Assembly (NCBI RefSeq): GCF_037042905.1
Contig: NC_087250.1
Span: 19,842,001 to 19,906,000, forward strand
DNA: 64,000 nucleotides
Direction: 5' to 3'
Origin: Lytechinus pictus
Lineage: Eukaryota
Shown: positions 30,333 through 59,865 of the stretch, piece after piece
How positions within the stretch are numbered: the stretch's first letter is position 1
How the letters are laid out: the number at the start of each line of letters is the position of its first letter
Notes under the pieces: model-generated
Databases searched by the model: none
What the model was told of the DNA's origin: nothing
Seen by the model: the letters and a program-made list of their open reading frames with translations, nothing else
Translations under genes and position numbers: made by a program

Positions 30333-33300
30333 TACACAACAAAAAAAGTAAGCCCCCCCCTTGAACAAACATCAATAATTTCCGAACCAATACGAGTTTT
30401 TGATATATTTTTACATGAGCGTGTAGGTAATTTTATAAGCTACCATCTGAGTAAATGTTATGGATGTATTTTACGTCATGCTTCAGTGAGCACCGTCATA
30501 AGGCAAAAATGTCACTTTTCAAAAGTCACAAGCCAAAAATCATGACTTTGATTCCATTTTATTGGAACTGATTCCACATTCTTATCATGAAAAATAGTCA
30601 GAAGGCTTGTAAAAGGTACTTTCTAAAAGACGATACATTTTTTTGGCTAAATTTCACGGTTGAATAAACACAAGTCCAAATTTGCTATAATTGGATTTTT
30701 ACACATTTTCATCAATAAAAATGATAGAATATGATGACAGTTATTTTGGGGAAGAGTATCTTCAACAATATTCATCGTTTCACGGTTCAATGAACATTTA
30801 TTGAGAAAAAAAATACGGTTTTCAAATATCATAGGCAAGTATTGTTTCATTTTGGGAACTGAAACTGATCTTTTATCAATTTTTTTGTTATGTTCATGAC
30901 CAGTTAACACGCTCCAATGATTCAAAGGCGTTTAATTAAGCATTCACGCTTGAATGAACATGTGGAATGTGATTAGCTCTTTTTTACGTTATTGGAAAAA
31001 ATGCAATTTGTAACTATGGATATCTGTCTCAAACCTCCTTGCATGGTTCATTTGATTTGATTTTTATGAAAATCCCGATGTTTAATGCATCAGTGAGCAC
31101 ACAATATTCGAAAATTATGCAAATGAGAAGAAAGTTCAAGGCCTTGGCCCCACTCTGTGCCGTATCGAATTGTTATTTTGGTGTGCGCACCTTTTGGATA
31201 GTTTTACTCTGAAGCCATGTGCCAAGTTTCATGAAATAACTGTTGGCAGAAGTAACAAAAACCGTTCATGAAACAAACCCCTTATTTCATATTCGTTAAA
31301 AGTTTGACTTCCTCTCTAATAGACTTGTGTACATTATGGGTGCATATGTTTAAAGTATACATCCAAAGAATCAAAAGTATTTTATAATGACTTTATGTGG
31401 TCATCATTGTAAAGGGGAAGTATTACTAATCAGATATATAACTTCACTTTTCAAAATAGTGATCAGAGATTGCAGAAATCAGCTCTCAAAAATGATTTAT
31501 TTTCATGCCATCCCAGGTAACAAGCCAACGTTGGCTCCACGTTGGAAACTTGAAAGTCGTTGGACGTTGGGAAAACTTGATGGATTAACGTTGAATCGAC
31601 GTTGGAAACTAGTTTGATGGAAAGATGATGGACAATCAACAATGACACGACGTTGGCAACGTTGGAAACTTGTTAGTCGGAGAGTTGTTGGACAGTCGAC
31701 AATGTCACAACGTTGGAAACACGTTTGATTGGATAGTTGTTGAACAGCCAGCAAAGGCACAACGTTGGCAACGTTGGAAACTAGTTCGCTGGAAAGTTGT
31801 TGAACAACCGACAGTGGCACAACGTTGACAAAGTTGGAAACTAGTTTGTTGGAGATTTGTTGGACGGTCGACAATGGCACAACGTTGGAGACTAGTAAGT
31901 TGGAGAGTTGTTGGACAGTCGACAATGTCACAACGTTGGAGACACGTTTGATTGGATAGTTGTTGACAGCCAGCAAAGACACAACGTTGGAAACTAGTTC
32001 GCTGGAAAGTTGTTGAACAACCGACAATGGCACAACGTTGACAAAGTTGGAAACTAGTTTGTTGGAGATTTGTTGGACGGTCGACAATGGCACAACGTTG
32101 GAGACTAGTAAGTTGGAGAGTTGTTGGACAGTCGACAATGTCACAACGTTGGAGACACGTTTGATTGGATAGTTGTTGACAGCCAGCAAAGACACAACGT
32201 TGGCAACGTTGGAAACTAGTTCGCTGGAAAGTTGTTGAACAATCAACAATGACACGACGTTGGAAACTTGTTAGTTGGAGAGTTGTTGGACAGTCGACAA
32301 TGGCACAACGATGGAAATTAGTAGGTTGGAGATTAGTTGGATAGTCAACGATGACACAAGGTTGGCAACGTTGGAAACTAGTTCGATGGAAAGTTGTTGA
32401 ACAACCAACTATGGCACAACGTTGTCAAAGCTAGAAACTAGTTCGATGGAGATTTGTTGGATAGTCGACGATGGCACAACGTTGGAAACTGGTAGATTGG
32501 AGATTAGTTAGATAGTATACAATGACACAACGTTGATAAAGCTGGAAACTAGTTAGATGGAAAGTTGTTGAACAACTGACACTGGCACAACGTTGGAAAC
32601 TGGTAGATTGGAGATCAGTAGGATAGTCGACGATGACACAACGTTGGAAAGTTGTTGAACAACAGACAAAGGCACAACATTGGAAACTAGTGTGTTGGAG
32701 ATTTGTTGGACAGCCAACAACGTCACAACGTTGGAAACGCGTGTTTGATTGGATAGGTGTTGAACAGCCAACAAAGGCACAGCGTTGACTACGTCGGAAA
32801 CTAGTTCGATGGAGAGTTGCTGAACAACCGACAAAGGAACAACGTTGGAAACTATTTTCTTGGAGATTTGTTGGACAGTCGACAATGGCACAACGTTGAC
32901 AAAGTTGGAAACTAGTTTGATGGAGAGTTGTTGAACAACGGACAATGGCACAACGTGGACAGCGTAATTGGAATAGTTTATTGGACAGTTAACATTGACA
33001 CAATGTTGGAAACTATAGTTTGTTGGATATTTGTTTGACAGTCAACATAATATCCTGGCATAATATACACAGTGTTGAGAACGTTAGAAACTGGTTCATT
33101 GGAGAATTGATAATTGATAAAGTTGGCGGAGTACAGCAAGTCTGCATATGCCGACTTAACCCAAGACAAGACAAGACTACTGGCATAATTTCCAATGGGG
33201 CCAAGGGGGGGGGGTCGATCAAGTAAGTTTGCTTGTCTATCCATGTCACCCTTGGTATCCCCCAGCAATAAGGGGAAAAGAAATCGAGAGAGAAGGAAAA

Positions 33301-36300
33301 TAATGGGAAGGGAAAGAGGAACTAAAACTAAGTCTAAGGGGAAAACAAAAATAAAGATGGGGTAGAATAGAGAGGCTGCATGCACCTGGGGATGAATGTG
33401 TCGATTAATATAGAAAATAAAGAAGAAAAACAAGAAAAAAAATGTAGTTCAAGACCAGAATTTCCAGAAACGCCCTCGTCGATCCTTTGCAGCTGGCAAG
33501 GCCTTTCACAGTAAGTACGAGATATGTCATAGGCCTACCGTCACATAACTAGAAGAAATTGAAGAAGGAAATACAAGCATCAAATGTGCCTATTTAAAAA
33601 TACCATACTATTCTGATGCGCAGAATTAGTCGCGACGTCGGACTCCTTCTGTCATGTCTGTGTAGTCTGCTTCCTTCAATTTTGAACTTGAAGAATCTGG
33701 CAGAATTTGGACTGGATAGTGGATATAGATAAGTAAATTCCAGAATATCTAGTGATCTGGAACAGTACTTATAACCTGTATATTTAGGACCTACAATCTA
33801 CAGTTGAATTTTCTTTGCACTTGCAGATAATCGGTAACTGCAACCATTGATCCCCTCCGAAAGATCCCGGAGTCAGCTTCTGTGTGCGTACAGTCCGACG
33901 CTATAATATTCGTGTACTGTAAGTAGTAGTAAAGTAGTACTTAACACCAGTCACTGCACAGTATAACATACTAACTAACCTCGTAATTAGCTTGTGTGAG
34001 TGACTAATACTAACCTCGCAATACGTGTGAGTGGGAACGAGTATGCGATACCAATGGCAAGGCAACAGTCATTGGATGATTTTCAAAATTCAAGTACGTA
34101 CAGTGTTGAAATCTGGTGTTGGTGTATACTAATACTAACCTGGCAATACGTGTGAGTGTAACCCAGGGAGCTCCGGCCCGCTGTGCGGGCCGGAGCCCAG
34201 GGGCTTACCGTGTAATTCACAATACCCACGGTAGTAGCGTGAAGTATGGTCTAAATAATTATCCGAATAAATAGTTAAAACAGAAATTAAGCACTTACCA
34301 CGATTATATGGATGAAGGTCTAACGAGTGGCAGCTTCCTGACCCTTACAAAAAATTCCTGTAGTACTCTGTGATATGTACTGCAGGAAGTATCGCAGGAA
34401 AGTACTGCAGGAATTACGTGCACGTAATTTGGGACGGTACTACAGAAATGTACAACAGGAGTACAACAGGTCCGTGTCCTGTGATACTTCCTGTGGTAAT
34501 AACCGCATAAGTATGGCAGGAAGTATGACAGGACACGATCACCACAACCGCTACAACCGCTACAACCACTACCACACTACTATTAGTACTACAGGACAGT
34601 ATCACAGGATAGTATCACAGGATAGTATCACATGATAGTATGACAGGACAGTATGACAGGATAGTATGACAGGACAGTATGACAGGACAGTACTACAGGA
34701 ATACCGCAGACCAGTATCACAGGGAAGTACTACAGAACAGTATCGCAGGACAGTACTACAGGAGTACCGCAGGCTTCTGGTACTGTGTCCTGTAGTACTG
34801 TCCTGTGATACTGGTCTGGTATTCCTGTAGTACTGTCCTGTGATACTGGTCTGGTATTCCTGTAGTACTGTCCTGTGATACTGGTCTGGTATTCCTGTAG
34901 TACTGTCCTGTGATACTGGTCTGGTATTCCTGTAGTACTGTCCTGTGATACTGGTCTGGTATTCCTGTAGTACTGTCCTGTGATACTATCCTGTGGTGAT
35001 AAATAGTATGACAGGACAGTATGACAGGACAGTACTTTAGGAATTCCGCAGACCAGTATCACAGGAAAGTACTACAGAACAGTACTGCAGGAATACCAAG
35101 AGACCTTACCGCAGGACAATTCCTGCAGTACTGTCCTGTGGTATTCCTGTGATACTGATCTTTGATATCTTCTGTGGCATTATTGGTCTCATCCTGCAGC
35201 CTTCTTGTGATACTTTACTGTGGTAATCCTGCAGGGGTATTCTTGTTGATTTCCTGTGACAATCCTATGGTATTGTCCTGTAGTAGTCTGTGCGATTTTC
35301 TCACGACACCGTCCTGCACTGGTTTGTTAGGCGTAGTAGTTTGTAAGAATTTCCTGTGATCCAGCACAACAACTTTGACATCTTGACTAATGAAAAGAGG
35401 CATGAAAAAACCCACAAATTTGCAAAGACGTTAAAAGCATATTCACATACCTTTATTATGTATGAGCTGTACTATGCACAGTATAGAACATCTTTGATAT
35501 CATAAATGACTGCTAGAATAATGCAGTAACATTTCATCTTTAGGATAAGACATGTACAAAGATTTATATCCATGAACATTGAGATGCCACATGAACTACT
35601 TTCACTATTCATACATTGCTGCCATTTTGAGATCACATAAAGAAAGCTAGATTCGACCCAGAATCCTTCCCTCTAACACAACAATAAGCGATTATTATTA
35701 ATACCTTGGTCACATTCCTTGACCGGTTGCCTTACGGCGAGACAAAATCAGCAGTTTTAGGTATTCCTGTACAAACCACCCACGTGTAGCTGGTAGTAGC
35801 TGGTACAAGGATGATTAAGACTGTTAATTTTGACTCGACGTAAGGCCACGAGCCGGCGAATGTAACCAAGGCTTAACCAGTATTATGGTTGCAAAAAAAA
35901 CTGTAATAGCTGGGCAATTGCATTTTCCCCTTCTTGTCAACACCCGATTGGCTTAATACTAAAAGCAGAACATCCTTTACTCAACCATGTTATGAAACAA
36001 TGGATAACCACTTCTGCATGTACAGATAATGCATGGTGCACATACAGTAAGGGATGAAATTATGATGTGTTGATCACCAGTATAAACTTAAAGTACATGA
36101 ACGTAATCATAATCACTTCATTTTGCTCAGAATTCACTTAAGTCCATAAATACTGAAAGATATTTTTGAATGAATTTCACATGATTTAGAACGTTCACCA
36201 TAGGTTAGAAAAAATATGAACATAAGATTACTTTGCCAAAACGTAGATCAAATCTATTGAGACATTAACCTTTTTGACATTGAATAGGCATATCATTTTA

Positions 36301-37276
36301 CACAGTCTTCTTGTCTAAGAATTGCTCCAACTACGTATTGAAGGGTTATATATGAATGTAAGCATGAGCCCATCATAAACACGAAATTGCGGCATGTAAT
36401 TTGATTTGCTACATGTCATAATTGATAACTAAATGACGTTCAATACTTGATGTTGCTACATAAAATAATTAAGGTCATGTGGCAATGTGAATTCATACCT
36501 ACTCGAGTCATTTAGTAATTTCAATTAGTATATGACCTAATTAATTATGACATATAGCTCAAAATTGACTTGAATAATTATGACCAATTTGATTGACCTC
36601 AATTATTTGAAGTAGCAACATCAATTATTTAACATAAGCACTCTCAATCGAGGTGGAGTAACTCTTCTTTAGGTCATGTTACTATTCGAATTGGAACATG
36701 TCATTGTTTAGGTCATGCAGCAATTCAAATTACTTGCTCAAGTAAACAATTACAATTGTAATATCACGCAAAATGAATTAGCTGTACATGACATAATTCT
36801 GTTCTTTGATGGGCTTATGCTTCCATATATTAAGTAAATGGCTTTAATTCTTAATGATTATCCAAAAATTCATATACATAAAATAAACCAATATGAAGAG
36901 CATCATATCCAAAGTGATCACCAGTTCACCCAATGTTACAGTACAAAAATAAAAAGCTGATTTTCTTATGTACTTTCACACATGTTATACATGTGCACTG
37001 TATGTCACTTGACCCTGGCAGACAATAGAATTGACAAGCAGTGAGTCCTACATGTACATGTAGCTGCCTGGTTTGCATACTTTAATGTTATATGAATTTC
37101 AATCATGGCCATGTGCTGTTTATACACTAAATGGAGGGATCTTGTCATAATGTTATGTCAATTAAAAACTGAATAAAATCCCAATTATCCTGAATAGCTA
37201 GACTAGCCCCCTTGCAATGGACATTGTAATCTTGTTTTCTTTTACCTTTCATTATTTTTGAAAATTTTCATACAAC

Positions 37277-38205
37277 TAGGGCTGGGACTAAAACCCGGGT
37301 ACCCGAGTAGAAAAATCAATACCCGATACCCGAAAATTGCTCACCAGTATAATGTACATGTATTTGATTTGTATTGCGTAGTGTAAGACATGATTGTAAC
37401 TCATTACAAAAGTACACAAGCCTCATTTTGAATTTCACCAATTACCCTCTAAATATCCATAAATATACAAGTTTTCAAGTGATGATGATGTGACCGAGAT
37501 CGTTCAATCATCGCCATGTTTCTTTTGCAGCGCAGTGACGTCATCCAGCCACTGCGACGCAAACCAATTTATGAATGAAAATATAGTAAGCATGCGCATT
37601 GCAAGCCTCAGCCCCACGCAGTATTACGTCAAAACAAGTCTGCAATACTCTGTCACCTCATACCAAAATCGACCTACGAAGCACCAGCCAATCACGTTCT
37701 TGTTACCATTTTTAGTTCATCATAAACCGAAAATGGGAACACGATCGTGATTGGCTGGCGCATTTGACGCTCCGAAACCCGGAAATCAATTGACTTTGTT
37801 CACGTAGCGATACAAACTCACGAACACGATGTAATATCGATGCTACTTCGTAAGATTTTGACGGAAAAGCAAGAATAAAAATTTGCTTACCTGTGCAGTA
37901 TCGGTGAGAAAACCTTTTATAATTCATATGATATATAGGAAAGTGGAATTCTAGGTCGATTTTGGTACGAGGTGACAGAGTATTGAAACTTGTTTCGATG
38001 GAATACTGCGTGGGGCACGGGAGGCTTGCAATGCGCATGCTTACTATATTTTCATTCATAAATTGGCTTGCATCGCATTGGCTTGATGACGTCACCTATG
38101 GGGTTTTTCCACCAGTCATATTTCAAGTGACATGATTTTCAGGTACCCACCCGAAAATTACCACGGGTACCCGAAGAGAAAAAAAACCCGAAAGTCCCAG
38201 GCCTA
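37277..38205. mobile_element. hAT-like MITE with 8-bp TSD CATACAAC, containing an internal inverted repeat (about 37535-37675 vs 37950-38095)
   Basis: TIR TAGG(G/C)CTGGGACT; perfect TSD; ACCCG subterminal repeats. Confidence 0.88.
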
Positions 38206-38972
38206 CATACAACTCTTTGTTTTTTTTTATACTTTATCAAAGCTTTTATGATTATAAATGTAATTAAATAATTTGACTTGATAAATGTATATTACTGGTA
38301 TACTAATTGTGAATTTTTAGCAAGAAACAGTATTTGTGTTGGATTAATACATAAAAATGTTGCGAAATTTCGGAACAGCGTACCCAGGCATCACAAATTT
38401 GGTCTCAAAAGATGTGCAAGACTTGAAAGTAAAAAGGCAGCTAACAGCCTCCCAGTTATTAACCCTTAGTTAAATTGGACCAATTTGACCCCCCCCCCCT
38501 TCCAAAAATTTGGCGACCATGCTGTCGCACAATTTTTTTAAAACATGCCTCTTTCTAGTCTTGTGCATCTTTTGAGACCAATCTTGTGTCACCCGGTACG
38601 TGGTTCTGTAATAACGTGACATTATGTAAGTACATGTCATACCAAAAATTGCTAAAAAACGTGATTTTGTGTACAAAGTCAATGCAATAGAGGAAAAAGT
38701 ATGATTTTGTATTCTAATTACGCATAAATTAGTATTATCACTTACTAACAATTTGCGTGAAATAATTTACAATTTAATTTTGTAAATTATGCCCTAGACA
38801 ACCCATGTGCCAATGTTAGACGCGATTGTGCGGTCAAGATCTCAAGGAAGGGGGGGGGCCCTGGAAACCCCCCCTCCCCCCTTCCCCGGCCATATCAACT
38901 CCCAAAATACCCTGGCTTTAGTTGACTTTCTGGCTCCTCTTGAGTAGTCACCATTCATTGGACAGCTTGTTT

Positions 38973-41900
38973 TTATCCAAGTCTGTATAGCACGAGGCAG
39001 CTTAATCTGTAGAAAAAAAAACACATACCATTACGATAACATGAACAACATAAAAATACAAGAAATAAGGTGTTTTGCCCCCATCTAGATCTCTTTTCAC
39101 AAGTACATATCTATCGGATAATGAGGTCCTTGCGGCTATCTCTCTTAGCATATTCTTGCTTATAAAAGCAAACTAAGCCGAAGAGTGACAAACAATTTAT
39201 AATGCAAACAAATTGTCATAAGCACATATTGAAACTCTTTAATAAAACAATGAAGAATAAATCTACATCTTCTAACAAGGATTACACTGTATGCCACTGC
39301 ATGAATACAATCTGCTTAATTTTGTAATTATAATATCTACTGAAGTGAATGCCTATATAATCACCTTTTATGAACTCCAACCGTGTCTTGTACAAGAACA
39401 TGGCCTTTTCTGTGTACACCTGTAGTATCTTTCCCACATAATGCTGGACTTGCTGCTCGATCATCCAGAGATCCCTCTTTGAATCTTTAATGAAATGAAA
39501 TGAATTTGAGTGACATAGTAAAATTTTATTTGCAGGTTAATACAAATACATGATGTAATAAAAATACATGATAAAACTTCTTCATTTCCATATTTCAGTG
39601 TTACAATTCAGGTGCAAAGAGTCATATTCTTTAATAATATTCAACATAAAATCAATGAAAACTAGTGCTGTTGTCGATAGGCCTCATATCGACATTGATG
39701 TCGACATACGAAGGATTTTCAAAATTCCGACATGTCGACATGCACGCACCCACATCGACATGTAAACATAAAATAAAAAGGGGTCTAGCCTACAATCACG
39801 AGTGTAAAGATTAGCTGAAAAGTTAGAAGCATTTATCCACAGTAATTGGCGCGATTAAAAGGTTTATTCAGCTTAGCAGCGCATTAAATGAAAAAAGAAT
39901 ATCTGCGAGCTGTGCGGCAGTAGAAATACGTCAGTGCAGGGCCGGCCTGCCCGATCGAGCCGCCCTCGATATCCCGTTATAGCGAGAGTAGCATTCACCG
40001 TACCCATCCACGGAAATATGTACCCATCGCGCGCTATTCACCGTGCTTGATAATACGTTGCTCCTCAATGCATTACTTTTCACATAAACGTGAGCAGCAG
40101 CGAACACGTGTTTTTGTCAAAGTTGTGACTGCCGCAATTGAGCGCTTACTTCATATCACGAAGTCACAGAAAACTTCCCTTCATTCGTTTGGAGATCGCC
40201 GCGGAAGTGATACTGAAATTATCGGTCGATTTTCATTACTTTTCATTGTCAAATTGAGGAGCTTGCGTTTGCAGCAATGATCACTGTTGTAATTGGTGAT
40301 TCTCAAATTGGCTACGAGTGTTATTGAGCAATGCTTTCGAAACCGGATCCTGGTACAAAAACTTGATTCTCCAGAAAAAAAATGTGGATTAAATCGGTGA
40401 TTTTGGAAGCTCAATTCCCGAACTGAGCCTGTATTATATAGATCTAGTGTGGGGATATCACTCGTGTCAAGGTGAATATATTTGATTGAGAGTGTTGTTC
40501 CACGATCGAATGCTTTTTTTTTATGTTAGGGAGCCCAGGCTAAATTACGGTCCCTTTTTCATGTCGACATTGTCGATGTCGGGATTAATTTTTAAGCGAC
40601 ATGTCGACATGGATTTTTGTTCCCGACAACAGCACTAATGAAAACATTAAAAGTAGAGGAGCATTTTAACCTTACTCACAGTCTGTTATTGTCGCTAAAG
40701 TCTTTACAATAAGAAGATTGGGCACTTTGCCGACATCGCGTAATGCTTTGCATCGATTTACATGTATAATAGTCTTTGTGCCTAGTCTTTTCTATGTAGT
40801 GTCTATAATATGTAGATAAAACATGCGTCCTTTAGCTAGTTAGACGAACAATTTTGGAAATTAAAGACGGATCCATATTTTATCAACCGGAAGAGAAATT
40901 AGTGCTTAAATGAAGCTATTTGAGGGATATTGATGATATTTAGGGTGAATTGACTTCACATCTTTTCGTAAGTTTGTCATGTTCATAGAAGGCCGGACTT
41001 GATTTTATAGAAACCTCTTTTAAATTTGTGGGATTGCCTACCTCGAGTGAAGTTTGTGCAGGCTCCACTCCACTTCACTATTGCTACACTACGCTCCACC
41101 TACCCAAACTTTGAGACCGTGAACTGGATCTGTCGATCTGATATTCCGAGTGACAAAAAGTGGGATCTTATGGGGGGGGATATCAAATTCATGCAACATC
41201 ACGCTCTTTAAAAAAATTAAAACTAATATTCTTCCTGCACACAAAGTTTCAGTTCTTCTCCATGCCTCTATCCGTCTCAAAATTGATGATTTAGAGCCAA
41301 CATGAAGTTTCTCACACGTATCAATATTCAATACATCGCATGAGTGTGAGGTCGGTCGGGTCAGACCAGGCCCGGTATCTCGCGAATATTGCATCCGCAT
41401 GCAATGTTTTGAAATCGGCAGCGAATTATAAATATGTGTGAGGAACTTCATGTTGGCTCTAAATCACCAATTTTGAGACTGATAAAAGCATGGAACTAAA
41501 TGAAACTTTGTGTAAAGTAAGAATATTAGTTTTAATTCTTTTTAAAAATCAAGATGTTGCATGAATTTTATATTCCCCACCCCCATAAAATCCCACCTCT
41601 GTCACTCAGAATATCAGATCGAGTTCATGGTCTCGAAGTTCGCGTCTGTAACGTTGGCGAAGAACAATAGAAAACAAGATGGCGGCGTAAACATCGGGCA
41701 AGTCTCTTCCGTCTAATCATGATATTTTTCGCATTTTTTGGAATGAATTTCTTCTTCAAAAATAACGACGAGAGCGTAGAAATGTTGGAAATTAAGTTTT
41801 ATCCCATGTACATGATTTAGGTCTAACGTTAGGCTAGATCTTTTAGAGGGAAAGTAGAAATCTCGGGGCCGGGGGTGAAAGTTTCAAGTTTTGGCTTCCT

Positions 41901-42479
41901 CTGTGTGGGTATATGAGAAAGGATCCCTGGCTTCATATGAGAGTGACCTTACGAAGTTACGTTAGTAAATGATTTTCACTCTCTAGAAGCCGCCTGGCTA
42001 GGCCTACAGCCATTCCCGATCACGATATTTTGAAAAGTGGTGGATATATTGACTTCAAATGTGACTGAGAGACTTGTCATGACATTTGGGAACAAATATT
42101 GGTGATGAGGTATGCTGGTATTAATCGGCCGGTGCGAAACTGCATTAGCGCCCACCCCTGACCTTGCTACAATCATGACAATACAAACATCCTCACCGCC
42201 GCCATCAATATACTACTAACTTAGCCAGCCGTTGGCCGTCCCCGGCCGCGCACACCGCAGATCAGCCCCCACCCGATAAGCGATCGGGAACAACGGCAGT
42301 GCAGTGGCCGTACGGTAATGATTAAAAAGTCGAAGAAATTTAAGTGCATGCCGCGCCAAACTACGAAAAATGGATCTAACTTACTGTTTAGCCTGTTGTG
42401 TGAATGTCTTAAGAAGTCGTTGTCCGAATCTGATCCATATTCTGTTAGTTTTTGTTGAAATATTGACGGCCTTCTTCAT
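38973..42479 (-). CDS. Candidate four-exon gene of unknown function inside element C: join(42479..42385,40802..40680,39484..39365,39006..38973), 123 aa; may be a pseudogene or non-coding
   Basis: Donors GTAAGT, GTGAGT, GTGATT; acceptors TAG, AAG, CAG; all phase 2; internal exons 123 and 120 nt; YY1-like CCGCCATTT and ETS-like CCGGAA just upstream. No homology recognised. Confidence 0.3.
39663..40637. mobile_element. hAT-like MITE with 8-bp TSD ATGAAAAC
   Basis: TIR TAGTGCTGTTGTCG / CGACAACAGCACTA; perfect TSD; GTCGAC subterminal repeats. Confidence 0.9.
41107..41641. mobile_element. Degenerate foldback MITE
   Basis: About 210-bp imperfect inverted arms, e.g. GATTTAGAGCCAACATGAAGTT / AACTTCATGTTGGCTCTAAATC. 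Confidence 0.7.
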
Positions 42480-46972: not shown

Positions 46973-48008
46973 CAGGGGCGGATCCAGCTTTCGCCAAAAG
47001 GGGGGGCCGAAAAATATTTTCATCAACATTTTTCCCGATTGGCCCCTATAATCTGATTTTTTTCTTGGTTTTTCAGGGGGTAGTCCTAACAATAGACTGA
47101 AGTTTTAAGTATATGTTAGTTTTTATTGTTATAAACAAGATAAGGTATCTCATGTGGTCTTAATATATAATGCGAGCGCGATGTGCGAGCTAAAATTCTT
47201 TGATATTTTATGTCCTTAGAACTGAAGATTCTGAGCATTTTTTATAATCATGAACAAAAATAAGTATCCAACTAAACAATGCGAGCGCGAAGCGCGAGCC
47301 GAAATTTTATTATAGTAACGTGAAAAGGGACTCAATTAGGACTATTTTTAGTGATTAATGAAAAGGATACAAGTATCACCAATTAAATAATGAGAGTGCG
47401 AAGCGCGAGCTCTAAATTTTTGATATTCCGACCTGAAAACTGGACAGTCTAAGCGCCTATTTATTTAAATAAAGAACAAGCTGTGTGTCTCAATAATTTG
47501 TTGGTATACTCACATGATAAAGGAGCATTTTGACAAATTTTGGAAAGAATTTCCAAAGAGGATAGGTATCTCACAAATTAAACAATGCGAACGCGCAGCG
47601 CGAGCTGAAAATTTTGATACAACAATTTGTGTAAATCAAACAAAATAATGAAAGCTTGATGTGCGAGCTAAAATATTGTGTGCAAATTGATTTCAGAACT
47701 GGATATATTAAGTGTCCTTTAATCCTCTTGAATGGGATTCATTACACAGGCAATGCAAACGCGAAGTGCGAGCGAAAGTTTTGATATAAAGTCTATTTTC
47801 CAATTCTTCCCCTCACCTTTTTCTTGTTTCCTTTCGGGGTCGGGCCGGCCGTTACGAGGCTGTAAATTACATGGGTATAATAACCTCTTTCCTACTTTTC
47901 TGTCTGTTTTTCGTAGTTTCTATCAAGTTAAAGAGTACACTTTTCTGCAAGTTGTAAAAAAATAGGGGGGGCCGGGGCCGGCTCGGCCCCCTCCTGGATC
48001 CGCGCCTG
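46973..48008. mobile_element. MITE with 5-bp TSD CCATC
   Basis: TIR CAGG(G/C)GCGGATCCAG; the empty site (a single CCATC) is present in the outer AB copy at about 33356-33360. Confidence 0.92.
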
Positions 48009-51000
48009 CCATCTTTATTTTTGTTTTCCCCTTAGACTTAGTTTTAGTTCCTCTTTCCCTTCCCATTATTTTCCTTCTCTCTCGATTTCTTTTCCCCTTA
48101 TTGCTGGGGGATACCAAGGGTGACATGGATAGACAAGCAAACTTACTTGATCGACCCCCCCCCCTTGGCCCCATTGGAAATTATGCCAGTAGTCTTGTCT
48201 TGTCTTGGGTTAAGTCGGCATATGCATGCAGACTTGCTGTACTCCGCCAACTTTATCAATTATCAATTCTCCAATGAACCAATTTCTAACGTTCTCAACA
48301 CTGTGTATATTATGCCGGGATATTATGTTGACTGTCAAACAAATATCCAACAAACTATAGTTTCCAACATTGTGTCAATGTTAACTGTCCAATAAACTAT
48401 TCCAATTACGCTGTCCATGCACGTTGTGCCATTGTCCGTTGTTCAACAACTCTCCATCAAACTAGTTTCCAACTTTGTCAACGTTGTGCCATTGTCGACT
48501 GTCCAACAAATCTCCAAGAAAATAGTTTCCAACGTTGTTCCTTTGTCGGTTGTTCAGCAACTCTCCATCGAACTAGTTTCCGACGTAGTCAACGCTGTGC
48601 CTTTGTTGGCTGTTCAACACCTATCCAATCAAACACGCGTTTCCAACGTTGTGACGCTGTTGGCTGTCCAACAAATCTCCAACACACTAGTTTCCAATGT
48701 TGTGCCATTGTCTGTTGTTCAACAACTTTCCAACGTTGCCAACGTTGTGTCATCGTCGACTATCCTACTGATCTCCAATCTACCAGTTTCCAACGTTGTG
48801 CCAGTGTCAGTTGTTCAACAACTTTCCATCTAACTAGTTTCCAGCTTTATCAACGTTGTGTCATTGTATACTATCTAACTAATCTCCAATCTACCAGTTT
48901 CCAACGTTGTGCCATCGTCGACTATCCAACAAATCTCCATCGAACTAGTTTCTAGCTTTGACAACGTTGTGCCATAGTTGGTTGTTCAACAACTTTCCAT
49001 CGAACTAGTTTCCAACGTTGCCAACCTTGTGTCATCGTTGACTATCCAACTAATCTCCAACCTACTAATTTCCATCGTTGTGCCATTGTCGACTGTCCAA
49101 CAACTCTCCAACTAACAAGTTTCCAACGTTGCCAACGTCGTGTCATTGTTGATTGTTCAACAACTTTCCAGCGAACTAGTTTCCAACGTTGCCAACGTTG
49201 TGTCTTTGCTGGCTGTCAACAACTATCCAATCAAACGTGTCTCCAACGTTGTGACATTGTCGACTGTCCAACAAATCTCCAACAAACTAGTTTCCAACTT
49301 TGTCAACGTTGTGCCATTGTCGGTTGTTCAACAACTTTCCAGCGAACTAGTTTCCAACGTTGCCAACGTTGTGCCTTTGCTGGCTGTTCAACAACTATCC
49401 AATCAAACGTGTTTCCAACGTTGTGACATTGTCGACTGTCCAACAACTCTCCGACTAACAAGTTTCCAACGTTGCCAACGTCGTGTCATTGTTGATTGTC
49501 CATCATCTTTCCATCAAACTAGTTTCCAACGTCGATTCAACGTTAATCCATCAAGTTTTCCCAACGTCCAACGACTTTCAAGTTTCCAACGTGGAGCCAA
49601 CGTTGGCTTGTTACCTGGGATTCCACCTGTAAAAAATATTGTGAATAGGAGAACAAATATTGAAGTAATTTTATTTATAATAATATATTTGTAAGAAAAT
49701 AGGTCCTTTTTACAAAAAAAAATAAATAAAAAAATAGATGGGAAACTTGGAAAAATGTATTTTCTCGCAATAAAAACTTTAAGGGGCCAGAATCGCATTA
49801 AAACTTGGTTATGAAACGTGTAAAACAAAATCTTAGATAGCATTTTAACTGAGATTTATTTTTTAATCAACATTCAACGCTGAACTTTCTTATGTTAATT
49901 GTTTATCAATATTTTGTGAAAACAGATAGTGTGCACATCGTCATGAATATTCATTTGGTGGGCTGATGATGTGACATTCCCATTTTTCTTTTTTAATGTT
50001 AGATATGAAATTATGATTATCTATTTTTTCAATACATGTGTAAATAATGTGTCCCCATTGTAAAGTTGCTGCATTAAATAACTAATGCGGTTAATTAGTC
50101 GTCATTCCAATTGTTTAAGTTCTTGGTAGAAATATGTTGAATAAATCTAATTTCATATATTGTACAAAAGAACATGGGATATGACATCATCAGCCCACCT
50201 AATGAATATTCATGAGACATGCCTAAATAAAACTGTTTCATGGGAATATTGCAAATCCTTAAAATTCAACTTAACTTCGTTATTTGTCATCCGATTTTGA
50301 ATAAATTTTAAGCATTTTGTTTTGTGAATTTTACTCTATTTATTGATTATCTCTAGCGTTGACCTCCCCTTCAATTATTTTCTTGTATTGTTAGAAAGAG
50401 ATGGATGAAGTAGAATAATACGTTCATGCTTATATTTTTATTCATTACAATATCTCTTTGAAATTCAACCCGGCTTCCTCACAACCATTAAGCTCTAAGA
50501 GTGTTAGGTGTGTCCTGTATATTTCAACACGTACCCTTTTAAATATAGTCATTTTTTTATTATTCATCCTGTTTTTTATGAAAAATAAGTGGCGAACAAA
50601 CAAAACAAAAATGATAATTGAAATTTAAAAGAGCGCATGAAAAAGAAATAACCCTGAAAACGAACAATAGTCCTCAAAATATAAGTTGCCCATTTTGGGG
50701 TCAATAATTTTTCGCATTTTTCAGTTCGCGCTTTGCTCCTAGTTTTGATCTAGTACGTATAGTACCCTTTCTCGTAGAAATAGAAGCTATCAAACTTAAA
50801 ACCTCTGAGTCTCAGTAGGCATAACCCCCCCCCCCCCTCGCTGATATAGACCTACACATATGGGACAGGGTGAAATATAATTTTGAAATAGGGCCTATAT
50901 GTCACAATCTAGCTATCACAAAATTAAATTTTCATATAAAAAATTGTACTTTTTAAAATGAATGGTGCCCTTTTAAGCCATATGGCCTTCTAAAAATATA

Positions 51001-54000
51001 AGACTCAATACGCTACTGACCTCTCCCGAAACTGAAAAAAAAGATAAATCCCTCACTGGAAAAAAAAAAATTAGTCTGTGGTACAAACAGGGCTTCCATA
51101 CAAGTACTGAAGGAAACTAATTTTTTCATGTACTGTACCACAGAAAATACACCAGTAGCGTCTGTGATACAGTTTCAGTCATATTTCTGGGGTGGCTGCA
51201 TGAGAAGTACCGCAGGAAATTTTGAAAGTATAGCACTGGGGTTGCCATAGAATTTTAGAAGTGCCTATATTGAGTCCTGCAGGAAATTTCAAAATTTTCA
51301 TTTACCACAGAAGTATCACAGGGTTTTCATAGAAGTGCTTAGTAATAGGAGTACTGCAGGAAATTTAAAAAATGTTCATATACAACAGAAGTATCGCAGG
51401 GTTGTCATAGAAGTACTGCAGGATATTTTAGAATTTTCATGTACAACAGAAGTACGACATAACTATCACAGAGTGATATTGTATACAGTTATGTACAACA
51501 GAAGTATTACACAGGTACGACAGAGTACCATTAAGGTATTGCATGAAATTTTCATATTTTTACGTACAGAAGTAGAACTATCACAGAGTGATACCACAGG
51601 AGTCCTGTAGTAATTCCTTATACAGTTTTGTACAACAGAAGTATCACACAGGTACGACAGAGTACCATTAAGGTATTGCATGAAATTTTCATATTTTTAT
51701 GTACCACAGAAGTATGACAGAACTATCACAGAGTGATACCACAGAAGTCCTGTTGTAATTCTATATACAGTTTTGTACAACAGCAGTATCACACAGGTAC
51801 GACAGAGTACCATTAAGGTATTGCATGAAATTTTCATATTTTCCTGTACCACAGAAGTATGACAGAACTATCACAGAGTGATACCACAGAAGTCCTGTTG
51901 TAATTCTATATACAGTTTTGTACAACAGAAGTATCACACAGGTACGACAGAGTACCATTAAGGTATTGCAGGAAATTTTCATATTTTCCTGTACCACAGA
52001 AGTATGACAGAACTATCACAGAGTGATACCACAGAAGTCCTGTGGTAATTCTGAGGTACCGTCGTGTATGACAGAAGTATCACACAGGTACAACAGAGTA
52101 CCACTAAAGTACTGCAGGAATTTTTTGTAAGGGGACATCGAGGCACAGACTGGAACCTAAAAAAAACGAAAAGTTCTGTGGCGGTAGCTCTCCTCTTTCA
52201 GAATTCAAAACAAAATGGCCGATTGAGACCGAGACTAATAGCACTAGTGCATTAGTATACATCTCTATGATATAGACTTTGTCAAATTCGCCCATGCGCC
52301 CTACACCCTCGGTACCGGTCTCGAACGGCCATTTTGCTATGAATTCTGAAAGAAGGAGAGCTACCGCGCGACATAACTTTTTCGTTTTTTGAGGTTCCAG
52401 TCTGTGCCTCGATGTCAGGAAGCTGCCAATCGTTAGACCTTCATCCATATAATCGTGGTAAGTGCTTAATTTCTGTTTTAACTATTTATTCGGATAATTA
52501 TTTAGACCTACTTCACGCTACTACCGTGGGTATGGTGAATTACACGGTAAGCCCCTGGGCTCCGGCCCGCTGAGCGGGCCGGAGCTCCCTGGGTTAGTGT
52601 TGGTGTTGTGACAACACCGTACTTGAATCAGGCTGGTGTTAAGATTGACCTCGGAAAATATGGTGTATTTCCGGCAGTTTGTGTTGAAGGCTGGTGTTGA
52701 TTGTCATCTGCTGAACCCAACACTGCACTGTGGCTGCATGGTGTTGATGATCTACAAGCAATTTCCCCATTCAGCAACACCGACGTACCCCAGAGATTGG
52801 GAGAATCGTGATTTAAAGTTCAGTGTTGGTGTTGATGAACTGTAGCTATTACGAACAGGGGGCGAACACGACGAACCATCTCCGTAAAATTATCTTTTAC
52901 ATTTAAGATGAGAGCAAATCATTAGAGTTTTAATACATTTCAATGAAAAATAATATTACGCTTGGTGTTGGAGCTCAGTTCAGCAGCCCTTTCACGCTCT
53001 CAACACCGTACACCGTACTTGAAATCACCCAAATGACTTGCTACCTGGCATTCCTGCCTTATTTATTATACGCTGCCTTGAATTGACTTGGTCGGTCCTG
53101 CCTGGCCTAGCCTGGACCGAGTGTTTTCCAACTGCAGTCAAACCTGTAGTTGCTATGTGAGGCATGCTACACTTGACGCTGAAATATCATTTAATAGTTA
53201 TGGCACGAGCGAGACTAGGCCATGGCCATGCATATTGAGATATCAGTTGACTTCTATCTTAATCAAAAAGAGGCACTCTTTAGTTACAGTAGGCAGTAGC
53301 TACGTTACTCTGAGTGAGGCCAAGTTACGCGACCTCCTTTTTTGATTTTGTAAATACTGAGAGACTGCAATTACACATGTGAGTTTTTGTGATGATTACT
53401 GACGTTGCAATTGGCATTGCATACCGAGTCATTAAACAATTGTAGACAGAAACAGAGATTGCAACTCGCAAGAAAATGTAATACATCTTAATTTTTATTA
53501 CATATGCATATGTTTTTTTGGTATTAGTCTTGTTTGAGAAAAAGAGGATGTCAAAAAAGTTTGAATGCTACAAAGGCCTCAATAAATATCACACGTAATT
53601 ATCTTGATTTCTCTTAATTATGTGAAGAGACTTGTAACAGAAAGAATGAAAAGAAATGAATAGCTGTAATAATAGTTGTAATGTTTTTTGATAGAATCAT
53701 GAACAGATTACAGATGATGATGGCACAGTGTTGAAAACTGTTTGATGGAGATGGCGCATCGTTGGATTTGTTTAGAATTAGACCAACAAAGAATCAACGT
53801 TACAACAACATTTAACCGATATTAGACAAACATTGAATCAACGTTTACGCCAACGTTGGACTAACATTGGACTAAAGTTGAATCAACTTTCCATCAACAT
53901 TGGACCAACATTATACCAACGTTGGATCAACGTCACCCAACGTTGGACCAACATTGGACCAACGCTGCCATACCTGCCTCATCTGGACAATGATTATGCA

Positions 54001-55523
54001 CTCATGAATATTCATTACATCAGTAAATGACCAAAATTTTAGGTAATATTGCTATAATAATTAGAGTATTTATGTTTATTCAATATTTCCACCATGAAAA
54101 GTTTCAGAAAAGTATGTGGCTCCATTACCATATCATATATAATCAAAACATATTATTCTAAGTGAAATATTCAAGGTTAAGTGTGGAAAATGATATTAAC
54201 TGTATTCTGCCAAGTATAGCAAAGTTGCTCTATATATAGGAGTCGATGACAGGTTACAGTGGATAGGTGTAGGATGATAGGAATAGGATATAGGATTAGG
54301 ATGTAGGATTTTAGGATAGGATAAGACATATGATGATAAAGATTTGAGTGTAGAGTTGTAATGGTGGACTTCACCTTGAAACCAATTAATGTTTTGTTAA
54401 TTACTGCCATACGTTGGAATAACGTTGGAGCAATGTTGGAGCAACGTTGTGACAACGTTGTAACAATGTTGGAGCAATGTTGCCAGACAACGTTGGAGCA
54501 TTGTTGCTGGACAGCGTTGAACCAACGTTGTAAACATAGTTGGACTGACGATGTATGCAAGTGCACGTCCATCGCTGCTTCAACGTTGCCCATCAACGTT
54601 GCAGCAACGCTGTTATTGATGACTCAGCCGACATTATACCAACGTTGGAGCATTGATGGTGGACAACGTTGAACTGACGTTGGAAATGTTGTTGGTCTGA
54701 CGATGTATGGACGTGCACTTCTATCGATGATACAACGTTGCTTACCAACGTTGTAGCAATGTTGTATTTGACTATTTAGCCAACATTGGATCAACGTTGC
54801 CAGACAACGTTGAAACATTGTTGCTGGACAACGTTGAACTAACGTTGGAAATGTTGTTGGTCTGACGATGTATGCGCGTGCACTTCTATCGATGATGCAA
54901 CGTTGGCCTGCCAACGTTGAGGCAACGTTGGGAAAAAAATTCCCAACGTTGATCCAACGTTGGTCCAACGCTGTATTGTTACCTGGGATATTTCTGCCTT
55001 CCACCGGTCCTCTTGCGAGCTCCAGCTGAGTGACGTCACACAATGAGCAGTGAGCAGCTGAGCTGACAGCAGCCCATTGGAGACGATCTTTCCAATCAGC
55101 GTTTTTTGCTCTTAGAATTGTTTATTCCTCTTAAGATTGGTCTTGTTATATAGATAAAAGTTTGAATTTACTGAACAGTGAAAAAAGTGCACATTTAACG
55201 TATTTTGGTGACCGATATTTAGCTTAGAATTTTTTTTTTTTTTCAAGAAATATAGGTGAATAAACAAAGCATATTTTCACGTAGAAATCACACTTGCGTC
55301 ACATTAATGTTATAGTCAATATAAAGCATAGACATTCTTCTTTATGACTGAACAAAAATTATGAAATTTCATTAAGTAGCAAAGTCAGGAATCACAAAAA
55401 AAACACGGCAATATCCATCGCGAAATGACTGAAATTGCAGTTGAATTGCCGAAGCATTATTAGGAAACAGCGGCGAGCGGACTTTCTTTCATATATCTTA
55501 AAAATGCCTTCCTGTTAGGGCGA

Positions 55524-55599
55524 TGGTCTGTGGCCAAATGCGTTGGCCATTGTTTGGTCATGTGCGAGGACCCTGGTTCGAAACTCGGATTTTTTTTTT
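55524..55599 (+). pseudogene. Degenerate tRNA-like Pol III unit
   Basis: A box TGGCCAAATGCG (55531), B-box-like GGTTCGAAACT (55575) at tRNA spacing, followed by T10; stems are poorly paired. Confidence 0.35.
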
Positions 55600-57078
55600 C
55601 TGGGTATTTTTTTTTTATTCCTTCCCCGTCCCTACCCATCTTTTTTTTCTCTTTTTATTTTCTTGTGAAATTCTATTCAGACCTGTATTTATCAAATCTT
55701 GCTTCTTAATTGCTGCTTTTGATTTTCAAGTTCTTGATTAGATTATTTCTACTCTTATTTGGGATGGGAGGGGTAGAGTTAAAAGTCAAGTCCACATCAA
55801 CTAAAAATTATTTGAATAGAGTGATTTCCCTTGTTGTTTTTACTCAAAACAGTCATATACACAAAACAATGATATGCAAATTAGAGTTGTCACTCACATC
55901 ACATTCGTTTCTATTTTTTGTGGCATTTTGTTTTTTATTCTTTGCAGATTTGACGATAGGAAACTCTTCATCTGATCACAATAGGTTATATTTACGGAAC
56001 TGTTAAATAGTAATTATATAAATTTGAATCAAAGTTTTTATGAAATTTCCTGCAATATCTTGTTATTTTTCTTTAAATTCAAATGAATTTTTGATTGCGT
56101 GGACTTCTCCTTTACTCTTAATGTAGGGAATGCATAGCAAAATTTATCCAGAAACAAAATTGTCTTAGAATATGCAAATCAGTAATTGGACACATGTTCA
56201 CTTTTCTTTCATCCAGGCCACTTCCTCACATCCACCAGGCTTTCAGTCTGATGATGAACCATCACACAACATTCACAGTGCTTCACAATAAATATTTCAC
56301 TTCTGTTCATACATGCAATAAATATTGTGGAAAACAAATAAAAGGCGTACCCATATTCAAATACCGTTTAAAAGGACAAATATATTATACCTTTCGAGAA
56401 AAATCAGCACGTTAAATATCTGATAACAAAACATAATTATGGGGCACTGCAAGAAACTTATGTTCAATTGCAAATCAAGCGTAAGTCTTAAATTCAAATT
56501 TAAGCGTAATAAGGTCGAGTTGCAATCGCAATTCAACTACATGTTTAATCAAAGGACTTTCCCTTGATTTGGGACGTGTGATTGAGTATAACATTTCTCG
56601 CAAAATGCCCTAGTAACATTAAAATTGTTCTTTCGTTTTAAATTGTGTGTTATTATTTTTGACAAGCTGTATTCCTGTCCGAGTAAAATTTCTTAGTTCT
56701 CTCCAAAACTGTGCTCAAAATTGTTTCCAAGATTGATAAAGAAATTTTTTCTTTTGTATCATTATCATTCCACAACTTGCAAACCGTAGGTCCTGGAAAG
56801 AGTGAAGAAAAAAATGGCTATATCCAAATCATAGTAAAAGGACATGATGGAATCTCCCAGATTGAGGTAGCAAGCAGAGACCAGAAGTCACCAGAGTTAG
56901 CAATTGTGCAGATCTGTGTGTAGAAGAGAGAAAAAAAGAAATAGTTTAAATAATCAAATCAAAGTATGAATTTAATTATCGTGATGATTGATGACGTGCG
57001 GTGGCATGTAATTCCCGGTCAACAACAAATGATAGTAGGTTTAGACACCTGAAAAGTTCCACTCAGAACACTGGTGCT

Positions 57079-57237
57079 CTACCTCAAGTGATGTTTGTGT
57101 AGGCCCCACTCCACTTCACTACCGCTACACTACCGTACATGTACGCCACACCTACCCGGGTAAGTGTGTAGCGTAGTGTAGGCTGTAGCAGTACTCCAGT
57201 AGTGAAGTGGAGACTACACGAACATCACTTGAGGTAC
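57079..57237. mobile_element. Small hairpin MITE
   Basis: TACCTCAAGTGATGTT ... AACATCACTTGAGGTA; a half copy lies at about 41040-41105. Confidence 0.7.
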
Positions 57238-57360
57238 GGTGCTCTCTGAGTCTCTGTGTCATTACAAAGATTGCATTTATCTTCATTGTTGAAGGCATTA
57301 CGCATACATATATGCAGCAACACTCTAATCAGAAAGAAACACCAGACTCTAATTTTGGCC

Positions 57361-57560
57361 CACCCAAGGGTTCATTACATGCCGCCGCGCACAGAAAATT
57401 CAAGCAATAGAAGTCGTGGACCCAAGAAGTGAGATCCCAGCACGCGCGACCCACTAGTTAGAAATCCACTGCCAAACGCGGTTCGTGGTTAGTATACTAA
57501 TACTAACCTTGCAATACGTACTAGTAGTATACTAATACTAACCTCGCAATACGTGTGAGT
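57361..57560 (-). mobile_element. Copy of the TIR-less element with 10-bp TSD AATTTTGGCC
   Basis: Perfect direct repeats at 57351-57360 and 57561-57570. Confidence 0.8.
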
Positions 57561-57787
57561 AATTTTGGCCAGGAATCAGGGTAATCACTGCTGAAAATTT
57601 GTCTGGCTTCATGACATCGGCATCATGGTGATATAATTCTGTGTATAATAAAAACTTAAACATTCCTCTGAAACAGCAGATTTTCAGCCATGGTCCATAC
57701 CACTCAGTGCTCCTAAATAATTTAATTGCCTGCCTGAGTCCTGACCAGTTTTAGAAATCTGAAGAAAAAATCTGCTGGAATTGTGCC

Positions 57788-57974
57788 ACTCACACGTATT
57801 AAGTATACTAACCCCGCACCACGAACCGCGTTTGGCAGTGGATTTCTAACTAGTGGTTCGCGCGTGCTTAGCCTGGAGGCGTCTGGGATCTCACTTCTTG
57901 GGTCCACAACACACGACTTCTATGGCTTGATTTTTCTGTGCGTGGCGGCATGTAATGAACCCTTGCCTTGGGTG
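57788..57974 (+). mobile_element. Copy of the TIR-less element; TSD GAATTGTGCC / GAATTGTACA
   Basis: Same termini as the other copies; 8/10 flanking match. Confidence 0.7.
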
Positions 57975-59231
57975 GAATTGTACAAAAACATTATTTCTAA
58001 AATAAAAACTTTTTAATTTTAATAGTAGTTATGCCAAAATGCATGATTCTAAACTTATATCAGATCTGTATCTGTCATCTGACCTGAATGCATCGTCAGA
58101 ACAAGTACAGTTTCCAAACATGCTTACCTTGACTTTTGACTGGATCAAACAGCGTAGCCTGCAACATGCATCGGGAGCAAGTGAATGGGACCGTGCAGCT
58201 TGGAGTTTTTCAATAGTTAGTAGAGCAACACAACGAAGACTGTCGAGTGGACAAAATCGATCTTTCCAGTTCACAATTCAATAAAAAAACGGGCAAAATA
58301 ACACAGTTCTGGTTCCCTTATAGTCTGAAGTTGTCGAAAACAGAATTCGGATGTCACATTACATGAAGAAAACGGTAAATTCGGAAGATATTGAAGAGGT
58401 CAGTAAGGTGATTCAGTGTATTATGCACAGAGGGATGATGAGCTCGATTATTGTGTGACGTCATTATTCTCGACTGTTTTCACTGCGTGAACTGTCGGTC
58501 TGGGGGGCGGCTGGGGGGCTTAGAATGGTCTCTAATAATTTCATTTCTTGCATTTCCACGACATCGATAAGACTTTTTAGTGACATATTTGTGTATAAAA
58601 AGACAAGACCTTTCCATTCATATATAATTTGTCTATAATCATCACTTTCGTGAATTTTCTTTGTGTGTATACTTTAAGAATAAGTAATCCCTTATTCAAT
58701 ATGGTGGAACTTTTTTTCAAGGCTGTCTTTAGCAATGTCATTTGGCAGTAACGTTTATCAACCTATGGGCAGAATTCTGTGCAAAAATGAAATCGATTTG
58801 TTTATTTACGGATGAGTGAGCACGCATCAAAGTGGGAAAATTGGTATTTTCAATGTCACAGACTCATTTTAAAGGGTAATAAGGTGAATATTGGGGGCAA
58901 ATTCGGTTTCAAATGTGACTTTAATTGCTGTTGTTTTTATCATCCATCATTTCTATCTCCACAGACTTTCCGAACTTTAAACATTTTCATGGTTGAGCGA
59001 GCACATTCGAAAACTTAGGAATGAATACTCTTTATACTGCATAAATGTATTCTGTTTCTAACAATTTCTCATGATCAGTTTAATTTATGGACAAATCAGT
59101 GGTGGATCCAGAATTTAAAAATGGGGGAGGGGTTTATAATCGGGGGAGCCACCAACATTTTCAAATTTTAATATGACCTAACAAGTTGTAGAGGATACTA
59201 CCAAAAACCCCTATGATGATACGTCACAATA

Positions 59232-59400
59232 CAGGGGCCGCGGAACGGTTTTCAAAGTGTGTGGGAGGGGCTGAGCCAAAAGTGGGGGGGGGGGTGGGGG
59301 CTGACCATGCAAACAAATTACAATCGTATGGTAATTTTTATACTTTTGTACATGCTTTTGGAAAAAAAAGTGGGCCCCCACCCCGCTTCCGCGGCCCCTG
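59232..59400. mobile_element. 169-bp MITE with a probable 5-bp TSD
   Basis: TIR CAGGGGCCGCGGAA; flanks CAATA / CGATA. Confidence 0.75.
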
Positions 59401-59747
59401 CGATATTGTGCTCACTCAACCATGAACATACGATATCAAAATTGTGTGTGGAGTGGCTAAATGATGGATAGTAAAACAGCATAACACCATAAAATTCACC
59501 TAAAAACAACTTTTGCCCAACTTTGTATTTGCACAATCTGAAAAACGACTCTTGTGACTTTAAAAAACTGTCATTTTTAATTCAATCTTTAATTACTCAT
59601 GCATGACTCAACCGATCAATCTCCTTTTGCCCCGGGTGTTGCTTAATGAGTATAGAAAACCACCTACGAAATATCATATCTCAAAATAACTCGGTTCAAA
59701 AGTTACAGCAATTTGATTTAGGGGGGACTTACTTTTTTTGTTGTGTA

Positions 59748-59853: not shown

Positions 59854-59865
59854 ATCATCATCTTT

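Follow-up and report, generated by a model that had tools for sequence, protein, structure and literature searches.

The 64,000-nt window of Lytechinus pictus DNA analyzed here (GCF_037042905.1, NC_087250.1, 19,842,001-19,906,000, forward strand) holds genuine, ordinary nested insertions: a gene-less element of about 2 kb lies in an older SINE and has been swollen to 29 kb. In animal genomes rich in repeats, DNA transposons often lie nested, and a split SINE is by itself unsurprising. We read the locus as a stack of successive cut-and-paste insertions whose first transposon, the TA element, was likely moved by a Tc1/mariner-group enzyme, a reading to which we give a probability of roughly 0.75. 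Its parts are as follows.

30256..30332, minus strand: 3' half of the SINE with A-rich tail; the final TA (30331-30332) is the left copy of the duplicated target
30333..31353: TA element, left arm (1021 bp, with the TTAA at 31350-31353 counted in)
31354..31511: left piece of the Kolobok-like element, with AG terminus; the AT that AB duplicated on insertion lies at 31510-31511
31512..54987: AB outer element, with CCCAGGTAAC ends and AT duplication
34159..52596: central element, lying within AB and bounded by TAACCC...GGGTTA
43474..49619, minus strand: AB inner copy of 6146 bp, in inverted orientation and flanked by an AT duplication
45868-46024, within the AB inner copy: palindromic short form of the central element, 157 bp
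54988..58673: right piece of the Kolobok-like element, with CT terminus
55031..55038, plus strand: CRE octamer, part of a longer motif shared with 58456
58456..58463, minus strand: CRE octamer near the right end of the Kolobok-like element
58674..58677: right copy of the TTAA duplication
58678..59747: TA element, right arm (1070 bp), with its terminal inverted repeat (TIR) at 59728-59747
59748..59749: right copy of the TA duplication
59750..59853, minus strand: 5' half of the SINE, carrying a tRNA-type internal promoter (B box and an A-box-like motif)
62242..62395, plus strand: intact copy of the same SINE, which served as empty-site reference

The proposal of the initial annotation that one SINE was split at one TA was borne out. 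The head (59853-59750) and tail (30332-30283) aligned to the intact copy at 62242 without gaps when one TA was kept at the joint, and with two gaps when TATA was kept. The halves differed from that copy at similar rates (7 of 104 positions in the head and 4 of 50 in the tail). In run X23, 47 RNA reads (agreement, 0.92) joined the SINE tail directly to the TA at 59748, as did one contig of run X5, the tail consensus of these runs being one letter off window positions 30301-30330. With TA at both flanks and a single TA in the empty site, the target-site duplication (TSD) of TA and the TACAC/GTGTA termini assigned earlier stand. The split repeat has the B box, A-box-like motif, A-rich tail, and dispersed copies of a tRNA-derived SINE, with a second copy in the window and many different flanks in the reads. 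A strict A-box pattern gave no match in the 5' half, where the A-box-like motif is present; ARAGORN called no tRNA, the 5' half included, and the seven Rfam matches over 54000-64000 all fell below the gathering score, yielding no parent tRNA for the SINE.

The terminal 20-mer of the TA element occurs exactly twice in the window, in inverted orientation (30333-30352 and 59728-59747), and two matches were found in none of 100 shuffled sequences, even allowing three mismatches. The TIR is perfect over 20 of 20 positions, matches at 25 of the first 26, and extends as a degenerate inverted repeat over about the first 200 to 240 bp, positions 28-240 scoring above all 300 mononucleotide shuffles (z, 5.2). 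Among the duplication lengths checked (1 to 10 bp), only a 2-bp duplication was found. IS3EU elements have TAY ends and a 6-bp TSD, and this candidate was rejected on the length of the duplication. The native element measures about 2.09 kb, compared with the 5.9 kb proposed earlier. A GC-rich dispersed insert of about 170 bp near 59233-59404 in the right arm is missing from some copies, which join 59232 to 59405. The element is multicopy: in the read comparison, which for this element covered the right arm, other copies matched through 59749 and then ran into unrelated flanks, with divergence past this point in 39 reads of X23 (agreement, 0.48) and four contigs of X1 (agreement, 0.6).

Pfam analysis of 158 frames of the nest detected no transposase family. 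For the TA and Kolobok-like layers (90 frames), this upholds the earlier statement that no transposase is encoded; matches at an E value of ≤0.05 were obtained for 4 of these frames and for 5 of the 68 frames of the AB interior, none of them transposon related, and the only match above its own cut-off was HgmA_C, on a 35-bp tandem array. The longest frame of the TA element is 94 aa, and the lack of a DD(D/E) transposase gene of its own is expected, since the element is non-autonomous. Seven TACATGTA octamers occur in the window, none of them with an extra TA on both sides (0 of 7); regarded as excision scars of TACAC ends, they gave no simple fit.

Superfamily labels were assigned from ends and TSDs, because none of the layers yielded an autonomous partner. 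On that basis, the TA element is most likely non-autonomous and mobilized in trans by a transposase of the Tc1/mariner group. Tc1/mariner elements classically duplicate TA (PMC10379824 and PMC8533490), and the element combines this TSD with terminal inverted repeats, as in the ITm group. Under the Repbase rule (PMC4455052), a non-autonomous element shares terminal positions 1 to 11 and the TSD with its autonomous partner. Like the ITm derivatives and MITEs in PMC10379824 and PMC5490172, the element is non-coding and has a TA duplication, TIRs, and many copies; it differs in that it itself starts with TA (TACAC), hence looking TATA-flanked, and with its 2.1 kb it would be a large MITE. In the literature searched, with Repbase and Dfam outside the search, neither a TACAC...GTGTA element nor TAC-starting Tc1/mariner ends of this type were described, and the families of the locus may already be catalogued in those two databases. 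The TIR pattern had no match in viral contigs and one in metagenome contigs (L001), which was 25 bp long, non-coding, and beside bacterial-looking open reading frames and was taken as chance.

The same nest could have arisen through a mover outside Tc1/mariner, either an unclassified or an EnSpm/CMC-type enzyme making TA-specific 2-bp duplications, which we consider unlikely. The CAC that follows the terminal TA is also found at the ends of CMC-type elements, the adjacent AB family leaves 2-bp duplications too, and the family is not fixed by any partner. However, no tandem array is listed in 30333-31353 or 58678-59747, so the element has no subterminal arrays, and the target was TA both here and at other loci. 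In addition, the AAAGTAAG core is present in mariner TIRs tabulated in PMC5490172, a weak likeness.

It is considerably less probable that the element really ends in CAC...GTG and has a TATA duplication, as for a Sailor (DD82E)-like or a 4-bp-TSD Chapaev-type element. TATA is indeed found at both CAC ends, the match of other copies likewise extends through the second TA, and Sailor, an ITm-group element described as having TATA TSDs, has one echinoderm member (PMC8533490). Nevertheless, a TATA duplication was rejected because the SINE empty site holds a single TA, both in the intact copy and in other SINE copies (47 reads and one contig). Sailor TIRs usually begin with GT or CC, whereas the present TIR starts with TAC (or, read this way, CAC), and the start of the brittle-star element listed in PMC8533490 is unlike it. 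The 11-letter TIR core occurred once in the 3.5-Mb supplement of that paper, internally and not at an end. Thus, despite its TATA-flanked appearance, the element lacks the 4-bp TSD of Sailor, and the split SINE is a case in which TATA flanks go with a TA target.

It is also conceivable, though not likely, that the TACAC family descends, without genes of its own, from a TA-targeting transposase lineage that is undescribed and has ends beginning with TA. If so, such enzymes would cut at a different position, the split SINE would be direct empty-site proof that the apparent TATA is a TA duplication plus a terminal TA, and 4-bp TATA TSDs lacking an empty-site test, such as those of Sailor, would become questionable; the word "empty" is absent from the main text of PMC8533490.

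What had been taken as one 5.9-kb element proved to be two: without AB, the 5937 bp split into the 2091-bp TA element and a 3842-bp TTAA-flanked element. Contigs from two runs (3 of X1 and 48 of X11) joined 31348 directly to 58673, revealing this 3.84-kb layer, and one X1 contig left its end at 58677 with 26 letters that matched nowhere on the stretch. The layer (31354-58673) has a TTAA duplication, AG...CT ends, and a TIR matched at 15 of 17 positions; once rejoined, its longest stop-to-stop frame is 98 aa. TTAA TSDs together with RR...YY ends define Kolobok (PMC9587614), and the duplication, the ends, and the short imperfect TIR suggest that the layer is Kolobok-like. It differs from Kolobok in that its frames of ≥35 aa gave no Pfam match to the DDE transposase or KolX, a scan that shorter or frameshifted remnants escape. 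No long terminal direct repeats were found in the layer, and therefore it is not KolobokP. Its 15-letter end motifs were absent from the four supplementary files of PMC9587614. Near-identical pieces of this layer were present in runs from differently labeled organisms; the labels are coded and the records filtered, and this gives no support for horizontal transfer.

The CRE octamers (55031 and 58456) and the GTAAGC donor near 58127 that the initial annotation had placed in the TA element are present, but they lie in the Kolobok-like layer. With AB removed, the first octamer is about 200 bp inside the left end and the second is 210 bp inside the right end, both facing inward. That the mobile unit was instead a TA element of 5.9 kb, equipped with CRE promoters and spliced exons (non-coding or cargo) of its own, is very improbable. 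At least nine runs contained no less than half of the words sampled from 54991-60200; none of the listed runs with these words is on record as RNA. RNA reads of X23 (about 6/100 of the run was read) spanned the interior mainly on one strand (about 4:1 over 54940-56799), but they are not assignable to the locus, since a multicopy repeat was covered at 88% likeness. Against such a unit, the contigs cited above join 31348 to 58673 or leave at 58677, and a separate TTAA duplication and TIR belong to the interior. Furthermore, no splice joint was found at the proposed donor among 15 of 143 joints, and neither a splice joint nor a start-site pile-up was found near the CREs among the results listed for the read comparison. 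The signal-bearing 3.84 kb is thus a separate insertion, and the view that promoters and exons belong to a 5.9-kb TA element is unsupported, although the composite of the two elements may have spread later. A general caution is that promoter-like motifs in a composite may come from an overlooked inner element.

AB lies inside the Kolobok-like layer, at an AT 158 bp in from its end, and its empty site (31509 joined to 54988) was found in one X5 contig. It has CCCAGGTAAC ends (CCCAGG) with a 12-bp perfect TIR, an AT duplication, and CAACGTTG-rich subterminal arrays, and without the inner copy it measures about 17.3 kb. The inner copy is a shorter, inverted version of AB, the B arms differing at 7 of 2452 aligned positions. 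Two readings of the central element, TAACCC...GGGTTA ends with three duplicated bases (GTG) or AACCC ends with a 5-bp duplication, give the same empty site. EnSpm/CACTA elements have a short TSD, a short TIR, and subterminal repeats, and AB, with its AT duplication, 12-bp TIR, and repeat arrays, may be EnSpm/CACTA-like. With the non-autonomous animal (CMC) members it shares CCC...GGG ends, a 2-bp duplication, and long subterminal arrays; it differs in its two unlike arms and its nested inverted self-copy. In its interior, scanned with the repeat arrays left out, 0 of 68 frames of ≥62 aa matched a transposase family.

A separate direct duplication (TA, TTAA, AT, and AT) and a separate pair of inverted ends mark each layer, and empty sites for the first three were present in other runs (SINE tail to 59748, 31348 to 58673, and 31509 to 54988). 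An assembly artifact joining repeats is scarcely credible: the region is repeat dense and, among the results listed, no read was seen across the outer junctions, but the duplications are exact at both ends of each layer, the halves are collinear, and three empty sites exist elsewhere. The flank at 59962-60500 had no coverage from X23, X1, or X5, and for this reason the full nest was seen in none of the reads.

In the history that we propose, the tRNA-type SINE inserted first. The 2.09-kb non-autonomous element then entered its single TA, which repair doubled; it would have been moved by a transposase encoded elsewhere in the genome, most likely of the Tc1/mariner group, that would bind the TIR and the degenerate extension of about 200 bp. 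Third, the 3.84-kb non-autonomous element, probably Kolobok-like, entered a TTAA in the TA element; its inward-facing CREs are probably what remains of a two-gene parent's promoters or binding sites. Fourth, the 17-kb CCCAGG-ended element entered the AT 158 bp within the Kolobok-like end and received, in reverse, a 6.1-kb deletion form of its own family. The 29.4-kb span would have grown in place and never been mobile as a unit. The locus fixes the exact ends and duplications of three gene-less families, together with their relative order of insertion, which aids repeat annotation.

The results listed for the read comparison comprised 15 of 143 joints, 24 of 1430 loose ends, and 24 of 18873 pieces. 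Divergence roughly tracks nesting order; this age ladder is rough because long pieces are few and the comparisons differ. The SINE diverged at 11 of 154 positions, the TA arm at 9 of 190 (X1) and 10 of 350 (X5), the Kolobok-like layer at 6 of 2929 (X1) and 18 of 2654 (X5, leaving out one minor 242-bp contig with 24 differences), and the B arms of AB at the 7 of 2452 given above. Median read depth, which does not equal copy number here, rose at the border between the Kolobok-like layer and the TA arm in all four runs (ratios of 3.7, 5.9, 1.7, and 8.8).

The nest occupying the 29.4-kb span is a real, well-bounded and ordinary stack of non-autonomous DNA transposons whose kinds are already known. 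Boundaries and target duplications were fixed for every layer, and empty sites for three of them. The features are as follows.

30333-31353 and 58678-59747: arms of the TACAC...GTGTA transposon (TA element)
59853-59750 and 30332-30256: head and tail of the SINE that it splits
62242-62395: intact SINE copy, the empty-site reference
31354-58673, minus the AB insert: Kolobok-like layer
31512-54987: outer AB element
43474-49619: inner AB copy, inverted

Read evidence came from four runs, chosen from 24 public runs listed for 54991-60200 and compared at 88% likeness over 54940-60500, the right side of the nest: raw RNA reads from X23 and contigs from X1, X5 and X11. The rows listed were 40 of 418 differences, 15 of 143 joints, 24 of 1430 loose ends and 24 of 18873 pieces. 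Three of the four runs lacked coverage of the right flank, and the exact nest was seen in the window only.

Joined through one TA, the SINE halves aligned to the intact copy at 62242 without gaps, while joining through TATA produced two gaps. Among the 24 of 1430 loose ends listed, the SINE tail preceded 59748 in 47 reads, at an agreement of 0.92, and also in one contig, with a consensus one letter off window 30301-30330. The SINE tail thus runs into 59748 in other copies, giving the SINE consensus with a single TA here, and the initial annotation was right that the SINE is split by this element with a TA duplication. Its concern that the halves might come from different subfamilies found no support: they differed from the intact copy at similar rates (head, 7/104 positions; tail, 4/50) and therefore behave as one subfamily. 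The terminal 20-mer occurred twice in the window, at 30333 (+) and 59728-59747 (-), with no third site even at ≤3 mismatches; two matches were found in 0 of 100 shuffles. A B box lies in the SINE head, together with a motif resembling an A box, and tRNA and RNA-family searches identified no parent tRNA. A degenerate unit (74 to 80% identity) occurs three times around the two SINE copies (59867-60195, 61087-61393 and 62105-62236).

The mobile unit of 5.9 kb described earlier as one TA element splits into a TA element of 2091 bp and a TTAA-flanked layer of 3842 bp. Among the 24 of 1430 loose ends listed, window 31319-31348 preceded 58673 in three X1 contigs, as did, in 48 X11 contigs, a consensus whose final 24 letters equal 31325-31348; since these join 31348 to 58673, 31354-58673 is itself an insertion. 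It has TTAA on both flanks, AG...CT ends and a TIR with 8 bases perfect and 15/17 matched. TTAA with RR...YY ends is described as the Kolobok signature distinguishing it from piggyBac (PMC9587614), and the ends suggest a Kolobok-like layer. KolobokP was rejected, because long direct repeats are absent. Median depth, which is not copy number, stepped up at the border with the TA element in all four runs. One X11 contig, among 15 of 143 joints listed, joins 55738 to 58219, which suggests a shorter variant. Pieces of the layer (54988-58677; 0.2 to 0.7% different) occurred in X1 and X5, labelled as different organisms, both without coverage of flanking DNA. A MITE-like inverted pair lies within the layer at 57361-57965, and the inner AB copy repeats one of its arms (46032-46204; 89% identity).

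As claimed previously, the TA element appears to lack a transposase: its longest frame is 94 amino acids, and Pfam found a transposase family in none of 90 frames taken from this element and the Kolobok-like layer. Weak complementarity between the ends of the TA element continues past the perfect 20 bp (149/250 columns over 240 bp; z of 5.2 against 300 shuffles for positions 28 to 240, and 0.2 for the following 240 bp). In 39 reads and 4 contigs the sequence beyond 59749 is unrelated flank (24 of 1430 loose ends listed), so further copies exist, ending in the same TA. Given this structure, the best reading, with a probability of about 0.7, is that the element was moved in trans by a Tc1/mariner-type enzyme, since TA duplication is the classic mark of that group (PMC10379824, PMC8533490). 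Repbase classing of non-autonomous elements requires a partner with matching ends (PMC4455052). TATA duplications are reported for Sailor elements (PMC8533490), but a Sailor-like reading fails here on the single TA of the empty site. A GC-rich insert of ∼170 bp with short inverted ends (59233-59404) is skipped by 14 X23 reads and by X1 and X11 contigs.

The CRE motifs and GTAAGC donor assigned to the TA element are present, but it is the Kolobok-like layer that holds the donor-like motif and both octamers. One octamer lies 199 bp from one end of this layer and the other 210 bp from the opposite end, both pointing inward within a common longer motif, and two occurred in 0.15% of 2000 mononucleotide shuffles. 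They may be leftover convergent promoters; transposase-binding sites would fit equally. Over 54988-59747, where RNA mapping had been proposed, the interior is covered by X23 reads, which lean somewhat to one strand over 54940-56799 and are not assignable to this locus; no splice joint was found among the 15 of 143 joints listed.

Four CCCAGGTAAC ends define the outer and inner AB elements, each flanked by AT, a nesting that explains the interleaved inverted repeats. One X5 contig matches window 31480-31509 exactly before 54988, an empty site with AT duplication. By resemblance the insert may be EnSpm/CACTA-like; Pfam found a transposase family in none of 68 interior frames. A TAACCC...GGGTTA element occupies the same site in both copies (34159-52596, 18.4 kb, in the outer; 45868-46024, a 157-bp palindrome, in the inner), and its own short duplication is either 3 or 5 bp long, depending on the reading. 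The AB interior carries additional inserts that are palindromic or contain inverted repeats, at 37535-38095, 41107-41640 and 52134-52416.

Divergence roughly tracks nesting order: about 7% for the SINE, 3 to 5% for the TA arm, 0.2 to 0.7% for the Kolobok-like layer (omitting one minor divergent contig) and 0.3% for the AB B arms (7 of 2452 aligned positions), from few pieces and unlike comparisons overall. The layers inserted one into another, the 29.4-kb span probably growing in place. With its outer TIRs still perfect, the nest might in principle be mobilized as a whole; this analysis gives no sign that it was. A literature search, with Repbase and Dfam outside it, found no description of these families.

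Across the window, seven TACATGTA octamers, including two overlapping pairs, lie at 817-830, 37049-37062, 37355, 40759 and 57136. A tandem duplication at 23053-29426 (3190 bp; 99.7% identity) has units each ending in a 76-bp GA-rich minisatellite.
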